Below are positions 1 to 55,233 of a DNA stretch of 64,000 bases, piece after piece. Each line of letters opens with the position of its first letter. The stretch's first letter is position 1. This DNA comes from Moniliella sp. 'wahieum' (taxonomy: Eukaryota), in the NCBI GenBank assembly GCA_003971905.1, contig RSEE01000075.1:1-64000 (forward strand), in the 5' to 3' direction. The notes beneath the pieces were generated by a model. The model was not told the DNA's origin, searched no databases, and worked only from the letters and a program-made list of their open reading frames with translations. A program made the translations under genes and the position numbers.

Positions 1-22
1 CCTAACCCTAACCCTAACCCTA
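1..22 (+). repeat. Telomeric repeat (CCCTAA)n / (TTAGGG)n, chromosome end
   Basis: CCTAACCCTAACCCTAACCCTA at the very start of the window; C-rich strand on +, as expected for a left end; followed by a telomere-linked helicase. Confidence 0.92.
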
Positions 23-90: not shown

Positions 91-150
91 CGAAATCGTC
101 CGCTCTATGCAGCATATGCCCTCCGTTTCTCGATTGGACGCACCGTTGAC

Positions 151-216
151 AAGTTACACCCACCCATCCCTAACCCTACCCAACCCAACCCAACCCACCC
201 ACCCTCCGATGGCCTC
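151..216 (+). repeat. Direct repeat copy 1 (DR1) with degenerate telomeric core
   Basis: AAGTTACACCCACCCATCCCTAACCCTACCCAACCCAACCCAACCCACCCACCCTCCGATGGCCTC; hand alignment to 8286-8349 gives 5 mismatches and 2 single-base gaps. Confidence 0.9.
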
Positions 217-2014: not shown

Positions 2015-2557
2015 CTACTCGTCCAGCGCCACACGCCCGTTCTCCATCATTGTGCGATGCCTTCCCCTGCCCCTGTGCGCGGCTGGGCTGAAAGAGGACG
2101 CCTGGGGCACGCTACGCCACCACTCGTGCTCTGACTCGTCCCATATGGGGGGGCACCGACGCTGTTTGTTCGAACCGTGCGCCGTCCCGACCCAACCTGA
2201 GCCTTTTGTAAGTGGTCTGACCTCAATTCTGGACCCATCCAAAAGCGTATCGTCTGTCCTGCAACGCCTGGTTCCCGTTCATGAACAAAGTGTATCCAAT
2301 TGCCCATCTGGCGACAATCGGGGCTGCTGCTGGCTCTGTCAACAGCGACAAGTAACGCTATGACGGGCATCGCTCCCCGAAATCTTCTGTTCCATCTCCC
2401 TCCCGCGTACTCTATAGATAAAACCCTCGGTTGTGTGTTTGTGGGTAGCCTAGCGACCGGGATGATTTGCATTGTGAACAGACTCGATCCTCCGTTTTGG
2501 AACTCTGACCGGCTCATCCCGCCATGTGTGCTTTCTGTTCAAAGCACTGTGATCTTC

Positions 2558-5500
2558 TCAGTCCGACGAGATGGAGATCGTGTCGGGGGACTGGTGTCTG
2601 AAGTCGCTCCAATCATCGTCACTGTTGAAGCGGCTGTCGGGCGGACTGGTGATGCTGTAGGTGTCACTTGTTTCCAGAGAATGAGAATGGGAACGGAATT
2701 GCTGCTCCATGAAGTACAGGAAGCCAGCAACGAAGAGCGAATGTCTGGCAACCCTCTGACTCCCAAAAACCAAGGGCTCCACCAACTCATTCCAAGGCCA
2801 GTGTGTACGGTCACAGCTTTGGGTTGAAGCTTGAGCTCACGGGGAAACGATACCTTTAGCGGCAGGAGGTGGACACGCACCCGCGCCCAAATCCCGATAA
2901 AGTCTTTCGGCGACAAAGTCGACAGCGCCGCCAGCACGAGTGGAATCAATCGTACCCACTTCGAGGGCGAGGCCATTGCCTGATCGCAGGCGGTTTTGGG
3001 GGCTGTACCTTCCGGTGCCCCTGCACCCCTGCAGACCTGAACCTTGCTCAAGTCCCCGTTCAACATGGGAACGCGCAAAGGCCAAAAGCAGCCATAACAA
3101 GTTCCATGTTTCGGGGCACGGAGATGGCTCCAAGCGATGCAGGCCGGACCTTCCAATAAGGTAATCCGGGGGCAATCCCCAATCGCGTGGTCTAACCAAT
3201 CCGTACCTCCCGAACCAAAGTCTCGCGCGAAACAGAGTGGACAGCATGTAGATTCGGTCGTTTCTTCCGGGCGCACGACCATTTCATACTGGGTAACCAG
3301 ACGACCAAGTTCGGAGGGAGTGACCTTGCACATTTGCTTTTGACCCCCGGGGATCGGCACACGTGTTGTTGACAGTGGCTCTTTGGTGCGCGAACCTCCT
3401 TGTACGTCCTCAGCATCCCGAAGGATCCTTGTCTGCCGCCCAACGCCCTTTTGCCCATCACGAGGCAAAAGGGGCAGTTTCGACTGGCCTGAAATGCCTA
3501 CCCCAGCGCGCCCGTTGCGAACCGGGGAAAGGGAAGCGCCTCCCGGCAAACGGGGACGGTTCTGTCGAACGGTTCTCGGTGGCTGCTTTTGCTGTTGCTG
3601 CTCGTGCGTTGTACGCCTGCGCTTCACTCCCTCGTCATGGCCCGAAGAAGAAGTGGTGGATGGGCGAGCGCGCTTCAAGCGTTCGTGCTCCTTCTGCTGC
3701 GGCCTTGGCTGCTGGTCGGGAGAGGGAACAACCGGAAGCGCAGAGGCCCTGATGAATGATGTGCTTGCTGAACTGGGGCGTGCGGTTGCCGCCCTCGCCG
3801 AGCTACTGTCCAGAGGCTGTGGGAGTGGGGTAGTAAAACTCGCGTCCCCAACAGAGCAGCACGGGCGTTGCAGTCTGCATGCAGTACACAACCTTGCGCC
3901 CTCCACATTCTCACACCGAATCGCCTTGCCGTAGAGGCAGATGTGCACAGCCTCCATCAGGCAAGGCGCGTTTTGCAACCAATGCGCCACAGACCCCACG
4001 TACGTCCGACGCTCATCCGTGCTAGGCCGCTGAGCCTGGTACGCTACCTGGCTTTGGGAGGCAAGAATGATCATCTGACCTTGCTGCCTTGGGCCTCGCG
4101 CGGCCCGTCCGGCTGCTTGGATCAGATCCAGACCGGTAAAGGGAATGCCGACCCAGATCACCTTGTCACAGTCCGGCACATCCAAGGACACGGCCAGGGA
4201 ACTGGTCCCTACCAGAACAACCTCGTCCCCGCGTACGAATTTGGCAAGGTCTTCTGCTCCCTCCTCTTCCTCGGCACCGTGGCTTTCGCCTTCGTCCAAC
4301 GTGTCCGATGCAGGCCGGGGGGGGAGGGGGTAGGTAGTGCTAAAAAGCAAAAAACAAAAGGCAAAGGGTGGGGGTTAGAAAACAACCTTAAAGTCAAAAA
4401 GGGGGTAACAGAAGACGTACGGGTACTCCCAAGCGCTTTGCAATGCTCCTCGTTTGCTGGCGCGAATTGGTGATCACGATCGCGCGGGAGGGGCGGGTGG
4501 ATGAGAAGGGCTGTTGAGCCATCCCTCCCGCGCCTTCAACCGCTGTGACAGGACCCTTACCAAAGTTGCTTCAACCCCGCCGTTGTCTGGCTTTTGGTAG
4601 ACATACTGCACCTCCGGCCGGGGGGAACATGGATTGTGATGCGCGAAGTGAAGCGTCCCTTCTGGCGACAACATCCGCTCCAGCTCTTCGACGATCCCTC
4701 GCGGCGCAGTGGCAGACAGACCCAGGAGGCGTGTATGAGGGAGAAGATTCGAAAGATAGCAAAGATCCTCAAACTCGCGCCGAAAGTTGCGTTGCAAGGG
4801 AATGAGATGCGCCTCCTCCAGCACAATGCGCTCCAGACGACCGCGTTGGGCCAGCGCACGCAGCATGTCCACCAAGGGCTTGTGGGCGAGTTGACTGACT
4901 GTTGCGAGCACCACACGAGTGCCTGGCCGGAGCTGAGGAACCTGTGGGTAGCCACCCGCCAAAGTGCCCTGCCAGCACTCATACAGGATATTGTGCCGGG
5001 CCAAGCGTTGCTCAAAGTCGGCAATCATACTGTGCAACGGCACCACAATCAATTGTACCATCTCAGCCTCAGCAGTCATGGTCGGGATGAGCCACATGGC
5101 CGTCTTGCCTGCGCCCGTCGGCATACACACCATCGACGCCGCCCCGAGGGGTTGGAATAAGATGTGGTGAAGACAAAGAAGTTGTGTATCGGTCAAACCG
5201 CAGGTGCCATACACCCTAACGCCCAACTCGCGTGCTTTGGCCAAACGCGTCCAGGGTGTTGCGGGAAGCAGGCGAGCAGGCGTGTCTGGGCGGAAGCAGG
5301 TTGGAAGCGCAGGAAGGGAAAGCTGTAGCACATTTTGTTGCCAGTCCCGGCTTACGTGCTGCGCAATGGGAAGCATGGCCAAGTCGAGGTACCCAATCTG
5401 GTGGGCGCTTCGACCGTAGGCCAAAGTAGTGGTGCTTGATGAATGTCCTGCCTGGGCCGCCTGACCATGCCATGTCACCGTGCGCTCCCAATCCATCTGT

Positions 5501-8457
5501 TGGTAGCCCGCTGACCCACCCTGCTCACCGCCACCACATCCACCCGAATTGGTCGTAGGGTCCGCGACCCCTGCACATCTCCCAGTAAGGTCCGCGTGCG
5601 TTGCCCTTTGGATAGGGCTGTACAATATTGGCGCCATGCCCTCAAAGTCAAAACCGGAGCCACAAGCTCGTTGGGCCAGTTGGCACGCAGAGCACGGTTG
5701 AGGTGGACCGTCGTCAGCTTGCCCGATTGCGCAGTGACAAACAGTTGGGGTTGGCAAGCTGGCACGGCAGCCGGGTTGCGTGCCAGCTTACGACGCAGAA
5801 TGTCGGTAGCAGGCCGGACGAGGAGCAGGTAGGCTTTGAGGACAAGTGCGGTCGTAGGATCAGGAAAGCGGGCCGAGCGGAGGGCGGCTTCGGGGCTGCT
5901 GTACATGGACGTCTTGCTCCGCCGTAACACGACAAAGAGGTCGTTCCCGGCAATGTAGATGCTGCGCTCGCAGGATAGCTCATTGACGCAACGGACATCA
6001 AGCGTCTCCACGCCGCGTGGAGAGACCCCAGAGCATACATGGATAGCCAAAGCCAGCTGAATGAGGAACGCCTCCTCGAGCTGGAGGACAGACCGGCCAA
6101 GTACCAGCTGGTCGTCTTCGTCCATTTTCTGATTCGACAATGTGCGCGAGAACAGAGAAAATGTCGTGACCTTGTACCAGCCGGCGGTTCTCAGGCTCGC
6201 TCGCAAAAGAGTAGTTCTCGGCCTGGTTGTTGAGCGTGTCTTTCAGATGGTGACCGTGAAGGGAATGCCTTCTGAAGAAATGCCCATACTCTTGCTCGCG
6301 CCCAACGGTGAACAACTTGAGAAATGCACTCTCCAGTCGGGCAAGGACCGTACTTGCAAAAACATACAGTTCGTGGTGCGGAACCACGATCCCATTCGGC
6401 CACGTGGTCTGGTGCGACTGGTAGAAAAACAAGCTGTCGCTCTTCAGCTCCGAGCGGGCCCGGCTGGCATACTGCAGCACGCGCGCCAATTGACCAGCGA
6501 TCCCAGGCGAGTCGACCACAACATAGTTGTTCTGATAGTCGATCAGTTCCGCCCTGGCACGGATCGGGTCCCGCAATTCGGGCTGCCTAAAGGAGCGCAA
6601 ATGAAGCGAGGCAAAGGCCGACAACCGCAAGCACCACATTAACCCAGCCATGAACGGAGACACATGTCTAGGCGCCCTGAAAAGCAAGCAAGGCTGGCCA
6701 TGGCGTGGCCCTTGGGCCGGTAGCATTTCCGGTCCTTCGTCTTTCCATTCCTCGTCCCCGTCGGCATCCGTCGCATCCTCTTCTCCGTTCAGCCGGTCAT
6801 CCAGGTCGGCATTGTCCTGCTCCTCCATAATAGTGCCGATACCTGAAAGGGATACAGGCTTGTGTTGTTCATCTTGCCCCGCCGCCAAGGGGTCTGTGGT
6901 AGGCCGATGCCAAATGCCAAGGCACTTGCTAAAGGCAAAGAGCCAGACCGGGCCAACATCCTCCAGGGCAGGCATCCAGGGTTGCTTCACTACCACATCC
7001 AGCCAAATCCCAATCGATCTAAAGGACAGGTCCTTCTCAAGGAATTCTGCAGCCTCCTTCGGATCCGTAGGGTAAGTTTGGGATACCCTACCTAAGTGAA
7101 GACGTTTCAGGAAACTCTCGAGCGGGTTCTGGGTGGTTTCAAACCCAGCCTGGCGCAATGCATTTGCCAAGGCTTGCTCATGGCTTGCCAAAACCCTTGT
7201 GGCCAGAGGGGCAAGAGGATGCTCTTCGGCTGTACCCTGCGATTTACGAACGGCGACCAGTAACATGGTAAAAAGAAGACAGTCTGCGAGATGGGACGTG
7301 TAATTTTTGAGTGTTGAACAACCGACATCCAACCCGTTCTTTCGTAACTTGGCATCTGGGCCAACGAGCCAGGGAGTGGGCAGGAAATGCTGTAGCTTTT
7401 TGGTACTTTCCAGCAAACCGATGGCCCACGATAGCAGTATCGATGCTGCGTGTCGACGCACCCTCTGCCAGCAGTGAAGGTCGCTCGCCTCAGCCAATTC
7501 CATCAAAGGAACACCTTGGAACAGCCGAGTAACGTGCCACATCCGGGGCCAAGAACCCATTAGGTGCTCTTCATCCACGACACGCGTCAAAGGATCAGCT
7601 CCTGGCATGTGTGGCTCCATAGTTCCCGGAGCGGCTTCTTCGACCTCAAACAAATACCTCAGAGGCCCTCGTCTGATCCGTCCAAGGTCGTTTGCATGCG
7701 GAAGGTCCTGCTCACCCACACGGGCCGGACGGGGGGCTGCTGGACGAGCGGGCGGAGTCTGGCCGGGACCCGGTGGAGCATCAACCTCTTTGGCGGTCAC
7801 CTCAGCGGATTCCGAAGCACCTGTACCCGCACCCCGACGCGCCCCGCGGCCGCTGCTTGTAGACTCCACCGTGCGAACGCCATTTTCAAAGGGTTCGAGA
7901 GCATTCTGTTCCTCATTGTCCTCCTGCTGGTTCCTTGTGGCCGCATCGTTCGTAGGACTCGCCAGCCCAACCGTCGTGGCGGGGTTAGAAAAACCCAGGC
8001 AACTACCATCGGCCCTAAGGATGGCACGCTTGATCCCGTATGCCACATTTTGCGTCGTCATGCGCACGCTGACGTATCGATGGCCGAAAGAACGTTGATG
8101 GTGTTCCTGATTCTCCCGGTAACCCAACACCCGGAAACACTTCCTGCACACAAGGTGCTTATCGCGGACAGGCACCCTATCCACAGGCTCCGTAAGAGGC
8201 AAAGGAAACATATCCTCCGAAGGTGTGCGTGGTTGCATGTTTTCGGGCATGGCACGCAACACGGAGCGGGCCTCTTTGGGTTCAAAAGTTACACCCACCA
8301 TCCCTAACCCTACCCACCCCGACCCACAACACCCACCTCCGATGGCCTCGACGATAGCTCGTGTACCACGTTGGCCCAGGCCGCGCGCCTCGCCGGGTTC
8401 ATCAAAGTCCCCAAGACATGGCAGGGACTCGTCGTTGCGGCCGAGCTGCTGGAGCAC
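2558..8457 (-). CDS. Telomere-linked RecQ-like SF2 helicase (TLH-type) with N-terminal Zn finger and tyrosine-recombinase-like domain; frameshifted in this assembly
   Basis: Joined from ORFs 5998..8457, 5475..6206, 4474..5757 and 2539..4350 plus intron 4420->4340 (GTACGT..CTAAC..TAG). Motifs: CRKC..HH..H; SGVSPRGVE; GHSSSTTTLAY; Walker A MPTGAGKT; LEEAH; LSAT; QAAGRAAR; RQC-like C..C..CTAC. Transcribed towards the telomere. Confidence 0.88.
8286..8349 (+). repeat. Direct repeat copy 2 (DR2) with interstitial telomeric core CCCTAACCCTA
   Basis: AAGTTACACCCACCATCCCTAACCCTACCCACCCCGACCCACAACACCCACCTCCGATGGCCTC, matching 151-216. Confidence 0.9.
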
Positions 8458-10391
8458 CAGTTCGGATGGACCATGGCGGGCGAACGGATAAGCAAAGGGG
8501 TGGATCCACCTCCCTTTAGCACGGCTGCGCCCAACGTCTCTCTCGAATCACAGCTGGCTGATTTCATCAGTCCCTATCCCTGGAATCCGGATCCACGCTT
8601 GCCCGAAGACCACGTTTCCAGCGTTTTTCTCAACACCCCGACCAGCGTCTTTCACCCGAGAGAGGATGGTTTGATCGATGTGGGCGTGCTCCCCTCGTTT
8701 TATTGCCCAAGCTCCGTTGCCTTGCCGCCGCTGCCGCTGCCCAGCCCCTGGACATCTTACCAGTATGTATTGCGGGTCCATCGAGAGGGGAACACGGTGC
8801 TCTTTTTTGGACTTGGAGTTGGGAGGTCGATGATGGTACGTTGCCCCCCTTGTTGGGTGGCCCTCCCTTTGGCTCTGCTACAGTGTTCTAACGCTAACTT
8901 CCTTGTGGTACCGACACCGACAAGACTGGGTGGATACTGGAGAGAAACGCCGTATCCCCTTCAACATGTCGACTGTTTCTTTTGAGTCAGAGAACGCACC
9001 GGAGGTGGTACGCACCATGTGTTTGTGTTGTGCAGAACTTACCTACCCACAATACCGACGCATGCTGGACCAAATCGTGATGTTTTCCGCGGTCTGTTAC
9101 CCGAAGGTGTACCACCTGTATGTCCGACTGTTTAGTATCTGCGTCATACCAAACAAATGTATTAACCCTCCCTTCAGCTCTGGAAAGTACCGCACCAACC
9201 TATCCACATTTAACGTTGAGACTGGGGTCGAGGACAAAGGTGTGGTGACAGATCATCCCTGGTTCAAGAACAAGGTGCCGTACGACGCCCGTCCAGACCT
9301 GAAGAGAGAACTAAAGTATGTCGAATGCATCCTCTGGGGTTTTGGCCGCTAACTCTATCGCAGCTCCGAAGTGTTCAACTGGAAACTGTTTGCGGATGAC
9401 AAGTACGTGTACCTCATTTCGCAGGGCGACCTTATCGCCATGTCACCCGAAACGGGACAAACCGTGTGGTCCTTTAAAGACATGTGGAAGGATGGGAACG
9501 CTAGCCATTTGGACAATGCCGCTCATTTTATCCTCGATCCTGAGCGTATGGATGTCGATGGTCATTCGATGGAACGCGTAGTGGGAGATGGTGTACGTAC
9601 CCCCCCGCCCACCTCGTTTCTTCTTGTTTCTTCTTTTAACAATAGCTGAGCTGACTCGGGATGGAGGTAGCGACCCCATCGATACAGCATTGGCATTGGG
9701 ACGGGAAGCATGGCTGTGCAAGAAGTGTTTTTCGACGCGACTACGGAAACGCTTCTGATCAGTGTGTTCCAAGCCGGGATCCAGCACCCATTTCCGATGG
9801 ACGGCTTCCACGCTCTTTGGCTCATCAAGGATTAAAAAAATGATCGTGTCGGAACGTGTGAGCTGGATGGCCTTTCTGCAGCTGCAGGAGTCCACGTTCC
9901 CTCACCACTGTGGCCATTCCGTGGGCAACGGGCGAATGCTCTTGCCACAGATCAACTACGGCTGGCGATGGAACAGGAAGGGCAAGTCTACCCGGGAGGA
10001 ATCCCACGCGGGTCCAAGCCCGATGGCTTGCTTGTGCCATTTGTCATTGACTGGAAACACGCGCGGAAGCCCGAGGAGATCCGGCTGTGCCGGCTGGTCG
10101 CCGGGCCCGTCTGGCGCTCCCTCTCGCCCGCCGGCTACCACAACATTGTCACCCGGGTTTCCAGCAAGCGCCAGCGGGGCGGGCACGAAGCCTTGCTCTG
10201 GGCCAGCGTGCTCGGAGCAGCTGCGTCTCAAGTTCAATACGTTGACCGCCACCGGCGCGACGTTGATCCTGCTGGACGAGGAGAGCCAGGCGCACCGCGA
10301 TCGGGTCCTAGACGACGGCGGGCTGCAAGTCGGTGCGTTCCTCGTGTGGGACTGGGGCCAGCAGGCCGAGCGCTGGTTGGAGGAGCACTAG
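8342..10391 (+). CDS. Hypothetical protein with PQQ-like beta-propeller blade motif (multi-exon, frameshifted)
   Basis: Chain of protein-like ORFs 8371..8985, 8903..9352, 9371..9649 and 9968../9762..10391; DDKYVYLISQGDLIAMSPETGQTVWSF resembles a propeller blade; ends in FLVWDW..stop at 10391. Confidence 0.5.
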
Positions 10392-11444: not shown

Positions 11445-14400
11445 TTACTGCCTCTGGCGCTGCAATCGGCGGTGGCGCAGATCAGCCGCCAGAAGAATAG
11501 TGTCCACCATTGACTGACCCACCGGGTCCCGGTTCCAACTTGACCGGTTGGCCCAAACCAGGTCAAAGCACGCCGCTCGCAACGACTCGAGTCCTCGACA
11601 CTAACTCATGCAGGTAATCAATGTGGCGCTGCAGTGCAGTTGTCCACCAAATAGGGAGACAAGATGAGATGGTGCGTAGGCTCATCGAGGGATGCATCGG
11701 TCGTCGGTGCTGGCGACAAGAGGGTAGTCAAGCGGGTCCGTTTCGAAGGCGATAGTTCATCTGCCCTGCCGTCTTCGTGGATCCGTTTGGACCCGTTCCG
11801 TTGTGGGGAGCCAACAGTATCTGTGCCAATGGGGTCAGCCACAATGGAAGGCGCCTCCGCGTCGTCGGCCACAGCCCCGCTCCCGGTGCTGGTGGGGGCG
11901 CAGGAGTGGCATCTGGAGGTTTCGTCTTCTCCGATTCCTTTTGCCTCTTTTGCCTCTCTTGCTTTTCCTTTTCTTGGGATTGTTCGGCGGCCTCACGCCG
12001 GGCTACGCGGACAGCCAACCGCTCACACTCGACCCGGAAGGCAGGTTCGACAAATTGGTCGAGGAGGATGTTGGCCATGTTGAGCATCTGGTGGGCCTTG
12101 AGTGCCCGCTCTCCATCCACCACTTCGGCCGCCTCTGCATTGTGCGCAATCCGTTGCAGATCCTCAACAAAGTTCGACACACAGAGGTAGTGGTCATAGT
12201 ACAGTTTCTTTGCATCCGCTCCAGCGTAGTCGTGTAGAGCACGGTCCGCTGCCATTAATGGTATCGGCCTCCTCCTCGTCAGCTGCTTGTGCTGCCGCCG
12301 TTACCTCGTCCACCGCTTCGGCCTCGTCCGCACCTGCTTCTGCCATTGTCACCTCGGGAGCAGCGTCCGTCTCCCCGGCCGGTACACGTTCCATCGCGTC
12401 ACCAGCAACGAATGTGGCGGCTTCCCCGGTCGGAGAGCGCGCAATGACGGTGCCCTCGGAGGGGGAGGCATGGCCATTCGCCCCCGCTGCCTCTCCACCC
12501 GAAGCAGAGATGGATCCCGGAGTCGGGTTGGTCAGTTGGTGAATCGAGATACGCTTGGTCAGTGTGGTCTGTTGTTTGCGCATCCTCTCCGCCTCCTTAG
12601 CGGCAGCACGAGCCCGGCGGTTTTTCTCGATCTCCTCGGGGGACTTCTCGTAGGGAAGGTCAAGCGTGTATTGCCCCTTTTGGCGCGTCGAGGGGAAGTT
12701 GGAGGTAAGGTAGGTGAGATTGTACTCCTCCTGTCAGAACGGGGTCAGCGGGGGATCAGAACCCAGCGCCAGGACACAAAAGCCGGCACAGAGCGCGGGG
12801 AAGAATACGCACCCAAACGTTTTTGGTAAAGACTTTGAACTTTTTGCGCAGCTCAGCCAGGACAGGCCCCAGCTTGAATTTGAGTTGCTCCAACAAGCGT
12901 TCGTCCGAAGCGATTTGTTCCTGTAACTCTTCCTTGGTGGGTTGACGGGGCGGCAAGGCCGGTGCCAAGGGAAGGTCGGGAAGGACGCGGCGTACTTTCG
13001 GTACACCTCCAGGGAAGAACGGTGGAGGCTGGGCCAAGTACGAGAGGAGAGGCTTGAAGAAGGCTCGACGCTGGTCTTGCGAGGGGGGGTTGAGCAAAAT
13101 TCCCGGTTTAGCAAACCATGCTTGCACCTCAGGGTCCAGTTCGTCCCGGGGACAATCGGCCACCCCGAGGAGCAAAACCGGTTCGTCGGTCGCCAAGCCA
13201 TCGAGAAGCGAACGCATCAGCGTGATCGTCGACCGCGGGATGGTATCAATCGTCCACGACTGAAGCGAGGGGGCAAAGAGCACAGCAGGTTTATGCCGCC
13301 GTGCTTCAACAAAGAGCTGGACCAAGGCTGTGTCGGGGGGGCGGCTGGCGTCGCCGAGCAAGGTTGGCAAGTCCAAGCTGGAAACATGGTACCCTTCCAG
13401 GTTGTAGAGCAACGCTCGTGCGAGCACATTTTGTCCATTCCCGGCTGGACCATGGATCAGCATCCGGGGCGATACACCCGTAGCGACGAAAACTGTTGCA
13501 GCAGAACTTCGTGGTTGAACGTGTCCCCGCCCAAGTGGGGCGATGGGTCTTGCCACATCGCCTCCTCCAAGGCAGTGCGCTGCTTGGCGGGGGGCAAGAG
13601 ACTGTCCAGCAGGTCCTGTGCTTCGGCCTCTGCGTCGGCGAGGAGTGGTTTGAGGTGTTCCGGCAGAGGCGTGGCTTGGGACGAGGCGGAACGTGCGGAA
13701 GAAGGAACAATCTTATTGATGGCCAGCATAAAGTCTTTCGGCGTTGCCTGGACAGTCTCGGGACGAAGGAGGAGGCGCGGTGGTGGTGTTAGATTTGGGG
13801 GTAGGTGCGCTGGACGGCGTTGAGCGCCGCCTCGGTGCAGAGCGCGCGCAGATCCGCACCGCCGTAGCCCTTGGTGAGCTGGGCAAGACGGTGGAGCATG
13901 GCGGGGTCGGGGGCGGGGTCCCACTGGCGCGTGTGGATCCGCAAGATCGACTCGCGCGCCGGCAGGGTGGGGAGGGGGAAATAGAATTCGCGGTCGAACC
14001 GCCCTGGACGGCGAAGGGCGGGGTCGACCGAGTCGGGTCGGTTGGTCGCCCCAATGACAACCACTTGGCCTCGGCCGTCCATGCCGTCCATGAGGGCGAG
14101 GAGGGTGGACACGATCGACGCATGGATCTGGTCCTGCTTGCTGCTCCGCACAGGCGCAAGGCCATCGATCTCATCGAAAAAGATAATCGCCGGCTGGGAG
14201 CGCTTGGCCTCCTCAAACAGGAGGCGCAGCTGTCGCTCCGCTTCGCCCACCCACTTGGACAGCACGTCTGCACCCTTGCGCATAAAGAAGGCCACCTTCT
14301 GCCCTTGGCCCTCGGAGCTGCGGGGGCGGCAGCGCCGTCGGCGGCGGGGCGCGTGGAAGCGGGAGCGGGCGCACTGGCCGTGCCCGATACGCTGGCCGCC

Positions 14401-16041
14401 AGCGCCCGCGCCACCAACGTCTTGCCCGTCCCGGGGGGGCCATGGAAGAGGACGCCGCGCGGCGGAGTGATGTGGAAGCGCTGGTAGAGCTCAGGATAGA
14501 GGAGCGGCAGGGTGACCATCTCCTTGAGCTGCTGCAGCGTGCTGTCCAAGCCTCCGACCGAGTCAAAGTCGACTTGCATGTTCGTCCCAAGCGGATCAAT
14601 GTCCGCCATCGGGTCGCCACCCGTCTTGATTCGACCCATCGTGTCGGCCGCACCATGGCCCGACAGGTCGCCTTGCCCGCCGCCTGGCGCCGCATCTCCC
14701 GCGCCCAGCAAGCCGCCCGAGATGCCCCCGGGCACTCGCAGCCCGGCCCCGGGGAGTTTACCCTTGCCCCGTCCCCGCGCCGTCTTGGCATAATCGTCGC
14801 TGTCCGACGACTGGGTGCGCTCGCCAAAGGCGCGCGCGAGGTCTTTGCCCGTCATGGACTTGGGCAATCGGTCCCAGGTCGTCGCCCCGCCAAACGGACG
14901 GTCCCCGCCGCCGCGTCGTGCACCCGGATTGGCCCACCCTGGACCATTCAGGCCCGTGTAGGGGCGTGCGCGGCGCGGGCTGCCGCCGCTGGGCGCAGGA
15001 GCAGCGGGGGTGGTATAGTTGACCTCTTTTCGCGCACGCAGACGCATCCCCTGGCTCTCCGGTTCCTCTTCTTCGGAAGCAGACGGACCGAGTGAAGATC
15101 CACTGGCCGCGTCGCTACTGACAAACTCGTCTTCGTCCGACAAGCGAGCCTTGCGTTTGGTTGTCTTACCTCGGGACTTGGTTCGACTGCGCAGGCGATG
15201 GCCAGCAACCACGGGTCCATCCCCCTCCTCCTTCTCGTGTTCCTCGGCGCTGGTGGCGCGGCTGTACCGAGGGCCTTGATACTGGGCGCTTTTGCTTTTC
15301 AGCGCCGCCTTGCGCGTGCGCGCCAGTTCTTGGACACGCGTCTGTGCCGTGCTTGTCCTTCGGGGCTGGTCTTGATCGTCCGAGGTACGCTGCGAGCTGC
15401 GACGGCGCGTACGAACTCGTCGGGCCGGTACTGCCTCCTCCTCCTCCGTGTCATTCACGTCCTTTCACGCATGCTGGTCAAGTTGCGCGTGGAGCGACGA
15501 GGGCGGTGAGAAGGCAGGTCCTCATTGTGCATCGTCGCGTCCTCCGCATGGCCGAGGCCACTGGAATTGAACGCTTGCGGGGGGCGAGAGGTGCGCCCAC
15601 TTCTCGTGGTGTGAATAACCGGCGCCACTTCGTCCTCGTCCTCATCATCCTCCCCATCACGATCAGTATCACCATCCGCATCTTCATCCTCTTCGGCGTC
15701 TGCGTCGAACTCGTCCGGGTTGGCAAGTCTGTGGGTGGCAATGCGAGAAGCAGCGCGGGACGAGCGGCGTGCGGGGACAGGTTCGTACTCTTTTTGCGCA
15801 TCTGGATCGGCGGGGGGGGAGGCGCGATCGGGCCGGGCTCGAGAGAGACCTGGGCCCGAGCTTGGTTGGCGCCAGAGGAGAAGGCACTGATGCGGATGCG
15901 CCGGATACGTGGTGGGGGCGCAGACGCCGGGCTGCTCTCGCCCGGGAAGGGAGGGGGGGAGGAAGGGTGTGAGCCAGGGTGGATGTAGGCATGAGGCTCG
16001 GCATCGGCCAAGGCGGCCGCGGCGCGAGTTCTTCGCGTCAT
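11445..16041 (-). CDS. YTA7: Yta7/ATAD2-family AAA+ ATPase histone chaperone with degenerate bromodomain
   Basis: VDFDSVGGL..LKEMVTLPLLYPE..PPRGVLFHGPPGTGKT; FFMRKGADVLSKWVGEAERQL; FFDEIDG; PALRRPGRFDREFYF; second AAA domain HGPAGNGQ; C-terminal LESLRAACFDLVWANRSSWNRD with stop at 11445. Confidence 0.95.
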
Positions 16042-40200: not shown

Positions 40201-42613
40201 TCTCAGTCGACTGGGACCACCGGTGGCGACTGACGGGTGCCATGCTGGGGATTTGGCTCGGATCCGTGGTGGCGTATGCGGTAGCCTGCGAGTTCCAGAA
40301 AGATGCCAGCACACGGATGGCTGCCCTTCTGTATTCGCGTCGTGCGACCAAGCTCTTGTCCCCGCTGCAGGTGATGGAGGAGCGAGCCAAGTCAGCTCGG
40401 TCGCTGGCGCACGATGCGCCTGTTGGCCCCATAGTGACGCCAAGCCACAGTGATCCCTTTCCTGGCCTTGCAGCTGCGCAGCGGGATAAAGACCAGCGCG
40501 TGTTTACCTTCCAAAATGTATGCTACGATGTGATGGTCAAGGGCCAGACGCGCCGCTTGCTGTCCGACGTAACGGGCATTGTGCCTCCGGGCCAATTGAC
40601 GGCGATCATGGGCCCCTCGGGCAGCGGCAAGACAACCTTGATGAATGTACTGGCGCAACGAACCAAGGGCCTAGGCGTCGTGTCCGGTACTTTTCTCTGT
40701 GACGGTCTCCCGCTTCCGTTGGGCTTTCAACACGAGACGGGATACTGCGAGCAAACCGACACGCATCTCTCTACGACCACTGTGCGTGAGGCGTTGCACT
40801 TCTCTGCGCTGCTGCGGCAGGCGACCGGGTCAAAGAAAGACAAGTTGGCGTGGTGCGAGCAGGTGATCGACTTGCTCGATATGGGCGCCTGGGCCGATGC
40901 GTGGTAGGCACGGCAGGCGACTGGCAAGCGCTCAGCTTGGAACAACGGAAACGACTGACGATTGCCGTCGAGGTGGCAGCCAGGCCGAGTCTGCTGTGTT
41001 TCTGGACGAACCGACGAGTGGGATGGACACCTTATCGGCCCGATCGATTGTGCATTCGCTCAAACGTCTTGCCCTTGCCGGCCAGTCCATCTCTGCACCA
41101 TCCACCAGCCTAGCGGCGACCTCCTCGCCCAGTTCGATCGTCTTCTCCTCCTTGACGAGGAAAGGTGGTGTTCAATGGTCCCTTGCACACCCCGACCCGC
41201 TCGTGCGGCGCGGTGCTGGACCACTTTCAGGTCCATGCCCATCGTCTCTGTGCCGGTGACAACCCAGCAGAGTTTATGATGGACTGCATTGCCGCCCCGC
41301 CGCCCGAAGCGACCGATTGGGCCAGCGTTTATTCGCACAGCTCCATGGCGGCCCACACCAAAGCCGCCATTGCATCTGCCATCCAAGCCGGTCGTACCGC
41401 CTCGTCTCTTCGCTCCTCCTCTGATGCGCACTTGCACGCACACGAGCACGCACAAGAGTACGGCGCTCATCTGCCCACCCAGCTGGCCCAGTTGTTCCGC
41501 CGCACCTGGATCCACTTTTGGCGCAGCCCCAATTACTTGGTGTCCAAGTTTGCGCTCAACTTGATTGCCGGTCTCTTTGTCGGCTCGTCGTTTTGGCGCC
41601 AGGGCACGCAAAGTTCCCCGTCCAACCTGGCCATTCGCGTGTTTGCTCACTTTGTTGGTACGTCCCAGCCCATTTTTTTCTTTCCTTCCTTCTCCCTCCT
41701 CTTTCCACTGCGCTGTTAATAGGGACGGATGAGCACAACCGACTAACCTGAAGAACGGGCGCGGGATGCATTCTCAGCCAACGTGCTGGCTGTCCCGCTG
41801 GCGCAGCATATGCTGCCCATGTACGTCGAGATGCGGAGCGTGTTTGAAACGCGCGAGCGGCAAGCGAAGATTTACTCGTGGTATGCGTTCCAGGCCACGT
41901 TTTTGGCGGTGGAGGTGCCGTGGGACTGGGTGTGTGGGCTGGCGTATTGGGTTCCGTGGGAGATGATGGTCGGCAACACGGGTCGCACTGGTGGTCGCTG
42001 CTGTGGTTTGTGCTGCTGTACTGCACCTTCTGGCCAGCGCTGGGCGTCTGGATCCAAAACATGGCGCCGGACGCCTTGCTGGGCGGCATCCTCTTCGAGT
42101 CGTTCTACTCGTTCTGCCTCATGTTCTCCGGCATCGTCACGCCGCCGTCGCTGATGGTTGCGTTTTGGCACTGGATGAACAAGCCACGCCGCTGCGGTAC
42201 TACATGGAAGGCCAGGCGGGCAACGCGATGCAGGGGGAGCGCGTGCGCTGCTCGGCCGTCGACCTGGTCCCGATCCAGCCGCCACCAGGATGACGTGTGC
42301 AAGCTACTTGGCCGACTTTAGTCCGACCTGGGACGACGCCCAGCGCGCCCTGGCCCAGCACACCCTCCCGCCGGGGCAAGGGTACTGGGTGCCGCTCGAC
42401 CCCGCCACCAGCGCGGGCGCGTGCGGATGGTGTCCGCTGAGCCATGCCGACGCCTACCTCGCCACGCTCGGCATGGACGCAAGTAAGCGCACGCGCGAGT
42501 GGATCTTTGCGTTGTACGTCGTGGCCAACCTGCTGTTCTGCTTTGCCTCGTTTTATGTGTTCCGCATCGCGTCCCCGCGCGCGCTGCTGGCGCGGTGGCG
42601 CCGCAAGCGCTAG
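37258..42613 (+). CDS. Full-size PDR/ABCG multidrug ABC transporter (NBD-TMD)x2
   Basis: NBD1 [39 protein letters not shown]2 [48 protein letters not shown]; two transmembrane domains; several introns. Confidence 0.95.
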
Positions 42614-52927: not shown

Positions 52928-55233
52928 ATGTCCTCCCTCGACCACGAAGACAGCCTCCAAACCGCTGCCCGTCCCTCCCGCCTCGTCCCGGCCGCCAGCT
53001 CGGGCAGGGCGGCAGCCTCGCATCACATTCATGCGCCCGTGCTCGTCTCCGCCTCCCCCGCCTCCTTCCTGGCCCGCATTGGCCTGCGAGGTGCCCGCCT
53101 TCTGATGGCAGTCACCATCTTTGCCTCGCTCGGTGTCCTTCTGTTTGGGTACGACCAGGGCGTCATGGCCAGCCTCATTGTCCACCCCGCTTTCCTCGCC
53201 TACTTTCACCGCCCTACCTCGGCCCAGATCGGTACGGCAGTCGCCATTCTCGATCTCGCTGCCCTCTTCACCGCCCTCCTTGCCGGTACACTCGCTGACC
53301 GTATCGGTCGCAAGGCCACTATAGGCTGGGGTGCCATCCTGTTCACGTGCGGCGGACTAGTGCAGACTGCTGCATGGAGCTTACCCATGCTCATTGTCGG
53401 TCGTGCACTAGCCGGGTTCGGCGTAGGGTTACTCACCATGGTCGTGCCCACGTACCAGAGCGAAATCTCCATCGCCGAGCACCGTGGGTACCTCGCCTCG
53501 ATCGAGTACACGCTCAACATTGTCGGGTACGCATTGAGTGTATGGGTCGGGTATGGCGCCAGCTTCATCACGGGCAACACAAACGTTTCTTGGCGCTTGC
53601 CCCTCAGTATCCAGATCTTCGTCGGCTGCATCTTGGCTGTGGGAACGGTGGTCTTACCCGAGTCGCCTCGGTACTTGCTCGATAAGGATCGCGATCGCGA
53701 CGCCATGCGCGTTCTCCTCGATCTCCATGGCGACACGAGGACGGATCCAACCAACGTGCCAAGTAGGTGCATGTCGATGTGATGCTTGGCCTCCCGGCTC
53801 TGTTCGGACAGGCATGGGGTATTAGCTACGAGATGGGGAGCAGAAGGAGGGTAGATTCCACACGGGGGTTAGGACGGAAAAAACTGACCGACCATCGTCT
53901 CTCTCTCTCTCTTATCTCCCAGACTCGAATTCCGCGAAATCAAACAAAACGTCCTTTTTCTTCGCGGACAAGGCGACCGCTCGTACCGTGCCATGTGGAA
54001 ACGGTACCGCTACCGCGTGCTCGTGGCTTGCAGCAGCCAGTTCTTCGCCCAGGTTCGTACTTTGGCGTGCGTCCGATTTGCACGAACAAAAGCGGCTGTA
54101 CTGACACGGCACGGCACACTCTTATTGTCCTTGTCTCTCCATTTGTGGGCGATGCAGATGAATGGCATCAACGTCGTTAGCTTTTACGCCCCACGTCTGT
54201 TTGCCAGGGCCGGATGGGAGGGGGAGAGACGGTACGTGAACTTCTAGGCGGTGTAAGTTATCTACTTTTTTGTCGGGACATACTTACTGGTTCTTCACCC
54301 CCGTTTTTTGTCGTAAATTGATTGGTTTGGGTATTAGCGGTACTCATGACCGGGATCAACGCATGTCTCTACGTCGGCTCCACCATCCCGTCTGGTTCCT
54401 GATTGACAGCTGGGGCCGATGTCCGATATTGATCTACGGCGGCTTGCTTGAGGCGCTGTTCCTGATGCTCATAGGACTGTTCCTCTGGCTCGACATGCCC
54501 CTTTCACCGCAACTAACCGTGGTGTCGGTGATTGGCTACACGTGCTCCTTTGGCGCCAGCTTCGGCCCTGTACCGTGGTTGTTACCGCCTGAGATTATGC
54601 CGCTGAGCTTCCGTGCCAAGGGCGTTTCCCTCTCGACTGCCGTCAACTTCTCAGCAACTATTACGTGGGGGAAACAACGCCTATTTTGCAGGACCTCATT
54701 ACCTGGCGCTTGTATCCCATGCACAGCCTGTTCTGTCTCGCCGCCGTCTTGAGCGTCTACCTGTTTTACCCGGAAACCGCAGGCGTACCCATTGAAGAAA
54801 TGGCATCGTGTTTGGTGATGAACTTGCCTCTCCGATCTCACAAGCGCACTTGGTGTCGTCGCTCGAAACGGACGAGGAGCAAAGTGCCGCCACGGAGATC
54901 GTGTTCGATCACATGAACATCGACCAATCCGAAACTCTTCCTTTAACCTCTACCCCGCACCCGTCCCGCCGATCCACCTCTTTCGCCTCTCACCCTCGCT
55001 TTTCCCTCGACGGTCCAGAGGTCATTGTCGATGAGGCCCAGGCGGCAGCAGCAGATGTTGATCCTGCTACACCTGCCCACCCTCGTGGATGGCGTCGGTT
55101 CTTCGTTTCCCTGTGGGAGTCGGGACCGAGGTCAGGACCCGCGTACGTCCTTGTTCAGTCCGGGCCTTCTTCCACCCCGATTCCACAGCTTGATGGGTAT
55201 TTTGGTTTGCGGTACTGCCTGGTACGGATATAA
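52928..55233 (+). CDS. MFS sugar porter family transporter
   Basis: GVLLFGYDQGV; DRIGRK; PTYQSEIS; PESPRYL; QMNGINVVSFYAP; PEIMPLSFRAKG; PETAGVPIEEM; several introns. Confidence 0.95.

Follow-up and report, generated by a model that had tools for sequence, protein, structure and literature searches.

What is encoded by the last gene before the telomere, and what does the conserved domain in front of its helicase do? Genes for telomere-linked RecQ helicases (TLH) have been known from the chromosome ends of fungi for more than twenty years. The TLH proteins consist of C2H2 fingers, a TLH domain of ~250 residues with no assigned function and a RecQ helicase (10.1101/2024.02.27.582403), and both this work and PMC1635262 still give the function of TLH genes as undetermined. 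The 64,000-nucleotide stretch analyzed herein (positions 1 to 64,000 of contig RSEE01000075.1 from Moniliella sp. 'wahieum'; hereafter the window) opens with a telomere tract followed by a TLH-type gene, for which a preliminary description proposed a fusion of zinc finger, recombinase and helicase, acting as the enzyme of a mobile element. The fusion and the fold were borne out, i.e., a tyrosine-recombinase-fold domain is almost certainly joined to the RecQ helicase, while mobility and the exact reaction stay proposals. This finding suggests that the gene family standing last before the telomere can cut and rejoin DNA, and the TLH genes of chromosome ends may be mobile elements.

After reading of the minus-strand codons, the five predicted catalytic residues were located exactly where the preliminary description had placed them (Table 1). 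The two Arg and the Lys lie in one frame, and the box II His and Tyr in another that runs into the Walker A motif of the helicase; the single frame change said to be required between the second Arg and His/Tyr was confirmed. This break had been set at ~5606, but the frameshift-aware alignment with the closest relative, P0001, fits ~5527 better, an inexact position within the overlap of the two frames from 5787 to 5475, which also includes 5606. The two other breaks named, at ~6125 and ~4480, both exist, but lie at ~6120 and ~4502 by the same alignment, and a fourth at ~4330, right after the intron at 4420-4340, had gone unnamed. All the residues fall within the domain range originally given (5416 to 6030), but the domain begins further upstream, at ~6372, corresponding to residue 1 of the model, from which the structural alignments to solved enzymes start. 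In P0001 all the motifs plus the helicase are joined in one uninterrupted frame, which aligns with 8283-6187, 6095-5607 and 5487-4519 of the window, and because this frame runs across the window frames, the latter correspond to one polypeptide in a relative, as had been supposed. Given such a relative, the catalytic motifs are, as judged from the alignment, more than a chance match.

Relatives were collected with a 171-residue piece of the domain (5610-6122) as the query against 1.84 billion representatives, which gave 32 proteins at E <= 0.001, and with the 11 contributed by two profile searches the set grew to 43. The best of these, P0001 (1,373 residues), is 46% identical over the query (E 2e-28). 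In the alignment of homologues, a check suggested in the preliminary description, the R, K, R, H and Y were found to be largely kept. The Gly and Arg of box I, the Lys and one further Arg occur in every one of the 43 relatives and the Glu of box I in 42, while the second catalytic Arg, counted in 40 rows, is Arg in 38, His in one and a gap in one. For box II, from which five truncated proteins were dropped (P0002, P0007, P0023, P0027 and P0031), the His is found in 36 of the 38 remaining relatives (Arg in P0026, Thr in P0029), and the Tyr, spaced by eight residues from it, in all 37 that reach it, P0021 ending before this point. Because the query included the first Arg, the Lys and the second Arg, the search itself selected in part for their conservation; His and Tyr lie outside it, and among the 32 relatives of the first search they are kept in 25/27 and 26/26, respectively. 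The order Arg, Lys, second Arg, His/Trp and Tyr is thus conserved, at the level of sequence, as in the tyrosine recombinase superfamily. Among the 20 relatives whose sequence continues for 240 residues or more beyond the Tyr, 18 carry the helicase, at a distance of 104-226 residues between Tyr and Walker A; ten of these 18 were obtained in a search limited to long proteins. The two without a helicase are P0022 and P0030; in P0022 the full catalytic set is followed by an OrsD domain where others have the helicase, and OrsD (PF12013) was detected by Pfam in many relatives.

The structure comparison, likewise proposed beforehand, matched the model of the domain to the tyrosine-recombinase/topoisomerase-IB fold. 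Xer enzymes rank first, with a root-mean-square deviation (rmsd) of 3.2-3.4 against 4.7-4.8 for type IB topoisomerases, and the structural alignments end at the Tyr, opposite the nucleophile region of the solved enzymes. By its position upstream of the RecQ helicase, the domain would correspond to the TLH domain, and the family is very probably active in catalysis, presumably by phosphotyrosine chemistry. If the TLH domain is an enzyme of tyrosine-recombinase fold whose catalytic residues are all in place, the question of function comes down to one residue, the Tyr. The domain differs from Xer, Cre and lambda integrase in its low identity (7-17%), the non-conserved His of HxxR, large insertions and the RecQ fusion; no core-binding domain was recognized, and no inverted-arm site was seen for it. 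The fold is also compatible with type IB topoisomerases, at the higher rmsd, but the window protein shows no match to their N-terminal lobes and has the helicase fusion. Among viral structures, the named entries of highest probability were two uncharacterized Feldmannia virus proteins (template-modelling score 0.42 and 0.32; E 0.06-0.08, not significant), which are possible relatives of the domain. A metagenome scan gave no true related locus; the one candidate, L001:5562-5768, was rejected as a chance match, being matched by 0 of the 43 relatives.

Table 1. Features of the telomere-proximal part of the window
Feature	Coordinates	Strand	Remarks
Telomere tract (CCCTAA)n	1..22	+	Window start; ~3.5 units in view; TLH gene reads towards it; from sequence and motif positions
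72-bp direct repeat, telomere-side copy	145..216	+	Contains CCCTAACCCTA
TLH-type gene	2539..8301	-	First gene after telomere; ~1,890 codons, four frame breaks, one intron
RecQ helicase domain 2	3840..4339	-	Pfam Helicase_C, E 5.8e-8; motif VI 4119-4096, followed by Cys cluster
Intron	4340..4420	-	GT-AG: GTACGT donor, CTAAC branch, pyrimidine tract, TAG acceptor
RecQ helicase domain 1	4421..5190	-	Pfam DEAD, E 1.7e-12; Walker A 5121-5101, motif II 4818-4807, SAT 4716-4708
Recombinase-fold catalytic domain	5330..6372	-	Two frame breaks inside; from alignment, structure comparison and conservation
Box II, His-x8-Tyr	5416..5445	-	His CAT 5445-5443; Tyr TAC 5418-5416, predicted nucleophile
R-x-x-R replacing H-x-x-R	5631..5642	-	Second catalytic Arg CGC 5633-5631
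Conserved Lys (AAG)	5913..5915	-	On beta strand/turn (secondary structure)
Box I, G-x3-R-x2-E	6006..6029	-	Arg CGC 6017-6015
Helical region before catalytic domain	6373..7620	-	Mostly helical, family-conserved by alignment; model pLDDT (predicted local distance difference test) 66.5
C2H2-type zinc finger (C-x2-C ... H ... H)	8080..8148	-	Aligned with finger of P0001
72-bp direct repeat, inner copy	8280..8349	+	Holds first in-frame ATG (8301) before homology begins

The gene is enclosed by a pair of direct repeats, which brackets an 8.1-kb unit with one recognizable gene. The two copies are 87.5% identical (scoring 83 bits, where none of 30 shuffles exceeded 38), and both contain the 11-mer CCCTAACCCTA in telomere orientation, which elsewhere in the window occurs only in the telomere. 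The inner copy occupies the place of the first zinc finger or OrsD region in relatives, homology to P0001 starting at 8283 and that to P0033 at 8304. Such a pattern is suggestive of what integration of a circle would leave. Weak similarity to 217-260 continues for ~45 bases beyond the inner repeat, and open frames on the plus strand (8308-9650; no family, weak PQQ-like propeller hint at E 0.08) start at this repeat and read away from the telomere.

In the mechanism that we propose, Arg6017, Lys5915, Arg5633 and His5445 (named by window position) would position and activate the phosphate, and Tyr5418 would make the 3'-phosphotyrosine link expected from the chemistry of the family. The enzyme would recombine sites that resemble the telomere, the 72-bp direct repeats among them, and the ~8.1-kb unit would be excised or inserted, probably via a circle; the fused RecQ motor may unwind or branch-migrate the joint, and the zinc finger could help in binding DNA. 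We put the probability that the domain is the recombinase of such a self-mobilizing unit at roughly one half. More tentative is the wider proposal that TLH genes are undescribed eukaryotic tyrosine-recombinase DNA elements, in which one protein, combining recombinase and RecQ motor, recombines telomere-like direct repeats to excise an 8-kb circle and inserts it at other chromosome ends. If true, it would account for the telomere linkage, the copy-number swings and the strain-specific presence of TLH genes, and the window would show a nearly intact copy together with its two attachment sites; if the domain recombines, TLH units would be a new telomere-targeted mobile DNA that could reshape subtelomeres. 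Several points weigh against this proposal, including the signs of damage to the window copy considered below. The preliminary description had noted that the first His of HxxR is replaced, and Arg is indeed found there in the window; at this position the 40 rows counted hold His in 2, Ser in 14, Arg in 8, Gln in 7, other residues in 8 and a gap in one. By this alignment the His is not conserved, a departure from the classical Int/Xer/Cre pattern. In addition, the repeat evidence comes from one locus, the repeat lacks inverted arms, and repeats near telomeres also arise in other ways, so that this evidence is suggestive at most.

An active domain might instead act like topoisomerase IB, as a monomeric nick-and-swivel enzyme for strain relief or unlinking ahead of RecQ in recombination-based telomere maintenance, with a gene that serves the host and is spread passively through exchange between subtelomeres. 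In the literature searched, no telomeric fusion of a helicase with topoisomerase IB was found. We consider such a topoisomerase-like role unlikely in view of the first rank and lower rmsd of Xer, the direct repeats flanking the window copy, and the patchy strain presence with many copies, such as the 14 TLH copies in one Botrytis strain and none in two others (10.1101/2022.03.07.483234), which suit a selfish unit. Strict telomere linkage and membership of the same superfamily would also fit a telomere resolvase of protelomerase type, cutting the replicated junction and sealing hairpin ends with the aid of the helicase; Borrelia ResT has unwinding activity (PMC5388405), and a protelomerase cluster stood 30th in the feature search (score 0.82). 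Even so, we regard this activity as improbable. The least probable alternative is a genuine fold turned into a non-catalytic DNA-binding module, as in Ndc10, since the Tyr is kept in 37/37 and the first Arg and Lys in 43/43 relatives at ~25% column identity; the strict conservation of the catalytic set therefore argues for chemistry rather than a binding module alone.

A separate question from the function of the family is whether the window copy is a dead pseudogene, whose four breaks and lack of a first zinc finger would then be genuine. Two of the four TLH breaks add a base, while all seven shifts in host genes look like lost bases. A search of 7900-9400 and 100-2600 with the N-termini of 12 relatives revealed no first finger, in an error-rich assembly; Ustilago TLH proteins likewise lack the C2H2 pair (10.1101/2024.02.27.582403). 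Motif II of the helicase is EEAH instead of DExH, and broken copies are common in the TLH family (PMC1635262). The EEAH motif is also present in relative P0006, and thus need not be an error. On the other side, the 1,888 codons of the reading path include no stop, all the catalytic residues are kept, and the G+C content is host-like with no sign of decay by repeat-induced point mutation. Moreover, the host genes of the window are broken more often, with seven shifts in ~2.5 kb read against four in 5.7 kb of the TLH gene: the sugar transporter shows three frame changes at 54340-54830 and the ABC transporter four at 40860-41200 by eye, across motifs which we take to be contiguous in transporter families. 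Pfam confirmed one case, Sugar_tr positions 308-403 and 395-449 being in different frames with overlapping coordinates. With host genes also broken in an error-rich assembly, the breaks say little in favour of decay; assembly errors are the more likely cause, and a dead copy seems to us doubtful. The assembly looks unpolished, so that calls of broken genes in this genome are unreliable from the assembly alone. The AAA ATPase at 12760-14490, with a degenerate second AAA domain, also changes frame repeatedly without introns.

How does this gene compare with known systems? Set by description beside the named TLH genes (Magnaporthe TLH1, S. pombe tlh1/2, Ustilago UTASa, and those of Fusarium, Botrytis and Monosiga), it is likewise the last before the telomere and shares the C2H2 finger and the conserved domain just upstream of RecQ, but differs in the missing first finger and the EEAH motif II. 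The word 'recombinase' is absent from the main text of the TLH papers searched, including 10.1101/2024.02.27.582403, PMC1635262 and 10.1101/2022.03.07.483234 as available, and titles and abstracts gave no paper linking TLH to a recombinase (subscription journals, Repbase and supplements lay outside this search); in the portions available, PMC3627910, PMC4522978 and PMC10799480 mention RecQ and tyrosine recombinases separately. The TLH family is known, but none of the literature searched interprets its central domain as a recombinase. Cryptons, Starships (DUF3435) and DIRS/Ngaro also use eukaryotic tyrosine recombinases. The short terminal direct repeats of Cryptons (PMC3627910) find a counterpart in the 72-bp repeats of the window unit, which are longer, at this one locus. 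As differences from these elements, the window unit has RecQ in the same chain, is telomere-bound and lacks reverse transcriptase, and neither DUF3435 nor any other Pfam integrase family was detected in the window frames (E <= 1) or in 32 relatives (E <= 0.05), which argues against membership of the Crypton/DUF3435 group. Telomere-inserting nimaviruses (majaniviruses and relatives) have a tyrosine recombinase with a C2H2 finger tied to telomere-repeat insertion (PMC10871703), and would provide, by analogy, a precedent for a telomere-targeted tyrosine recombinase; compared by description, they are large crustacean viral genomes against an 8-kb one-gene unit, with no RecQ fusion described in the available part of that paper. 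Academ and AcademH elements have inverted repeats and depend on a DDE transposase for their movement. They likewise carry a RecQ-type helicase on a eukaryotic DNA element (PMC3627910; PMC10799480), but the window protein pairs RecQ with a tyrosine-recombinase fold in one chain.

The TLH-type gene encodes, in order, the zinc finger, the helical region, the recombinase-fold domain, the RecQ helicase and a C-terminal tail, its start and last 1.3 kb being without support from relatives. The finger fits the second TLH finger pattern of 10.1101/2024.02.27.582403, and the helical region gave no clear structural match in fold comparisons of its model, nor was a core-binding (SAM-like) domain recognized in it. 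In the Pfam scan of the window frames, DEAD was assigned to frame 4477-5787 and Helicase_C to frame 2542-4374, with no family for the two upstream frames of this gene. The best PDB matches of the P0001 helicase are RecQ5, RecQ1, RecQ, BLM and WRN; helicase domain 2 of the window is matched by 10 of the 43 relatives, and the called product of P0001 ends where the window intron lies. Further in from the telomere are fungal host genes for an AAA ATPase, a TEA-domain protein, a PDR-type ABC transporter and a sugar transporter. Near the gene end, past the part supported by relatives, Cys/His clusters with C-x-x-C pairs (3090-3250, minus strand) are possibly a further zinc-binding domain. Between the gene end and the telomere, a tandem array of related 18/21/39/60-bp units with a GAGCACAGGCTTG core (679-1042) resembles the repeat blocks reported beside TLH genes.

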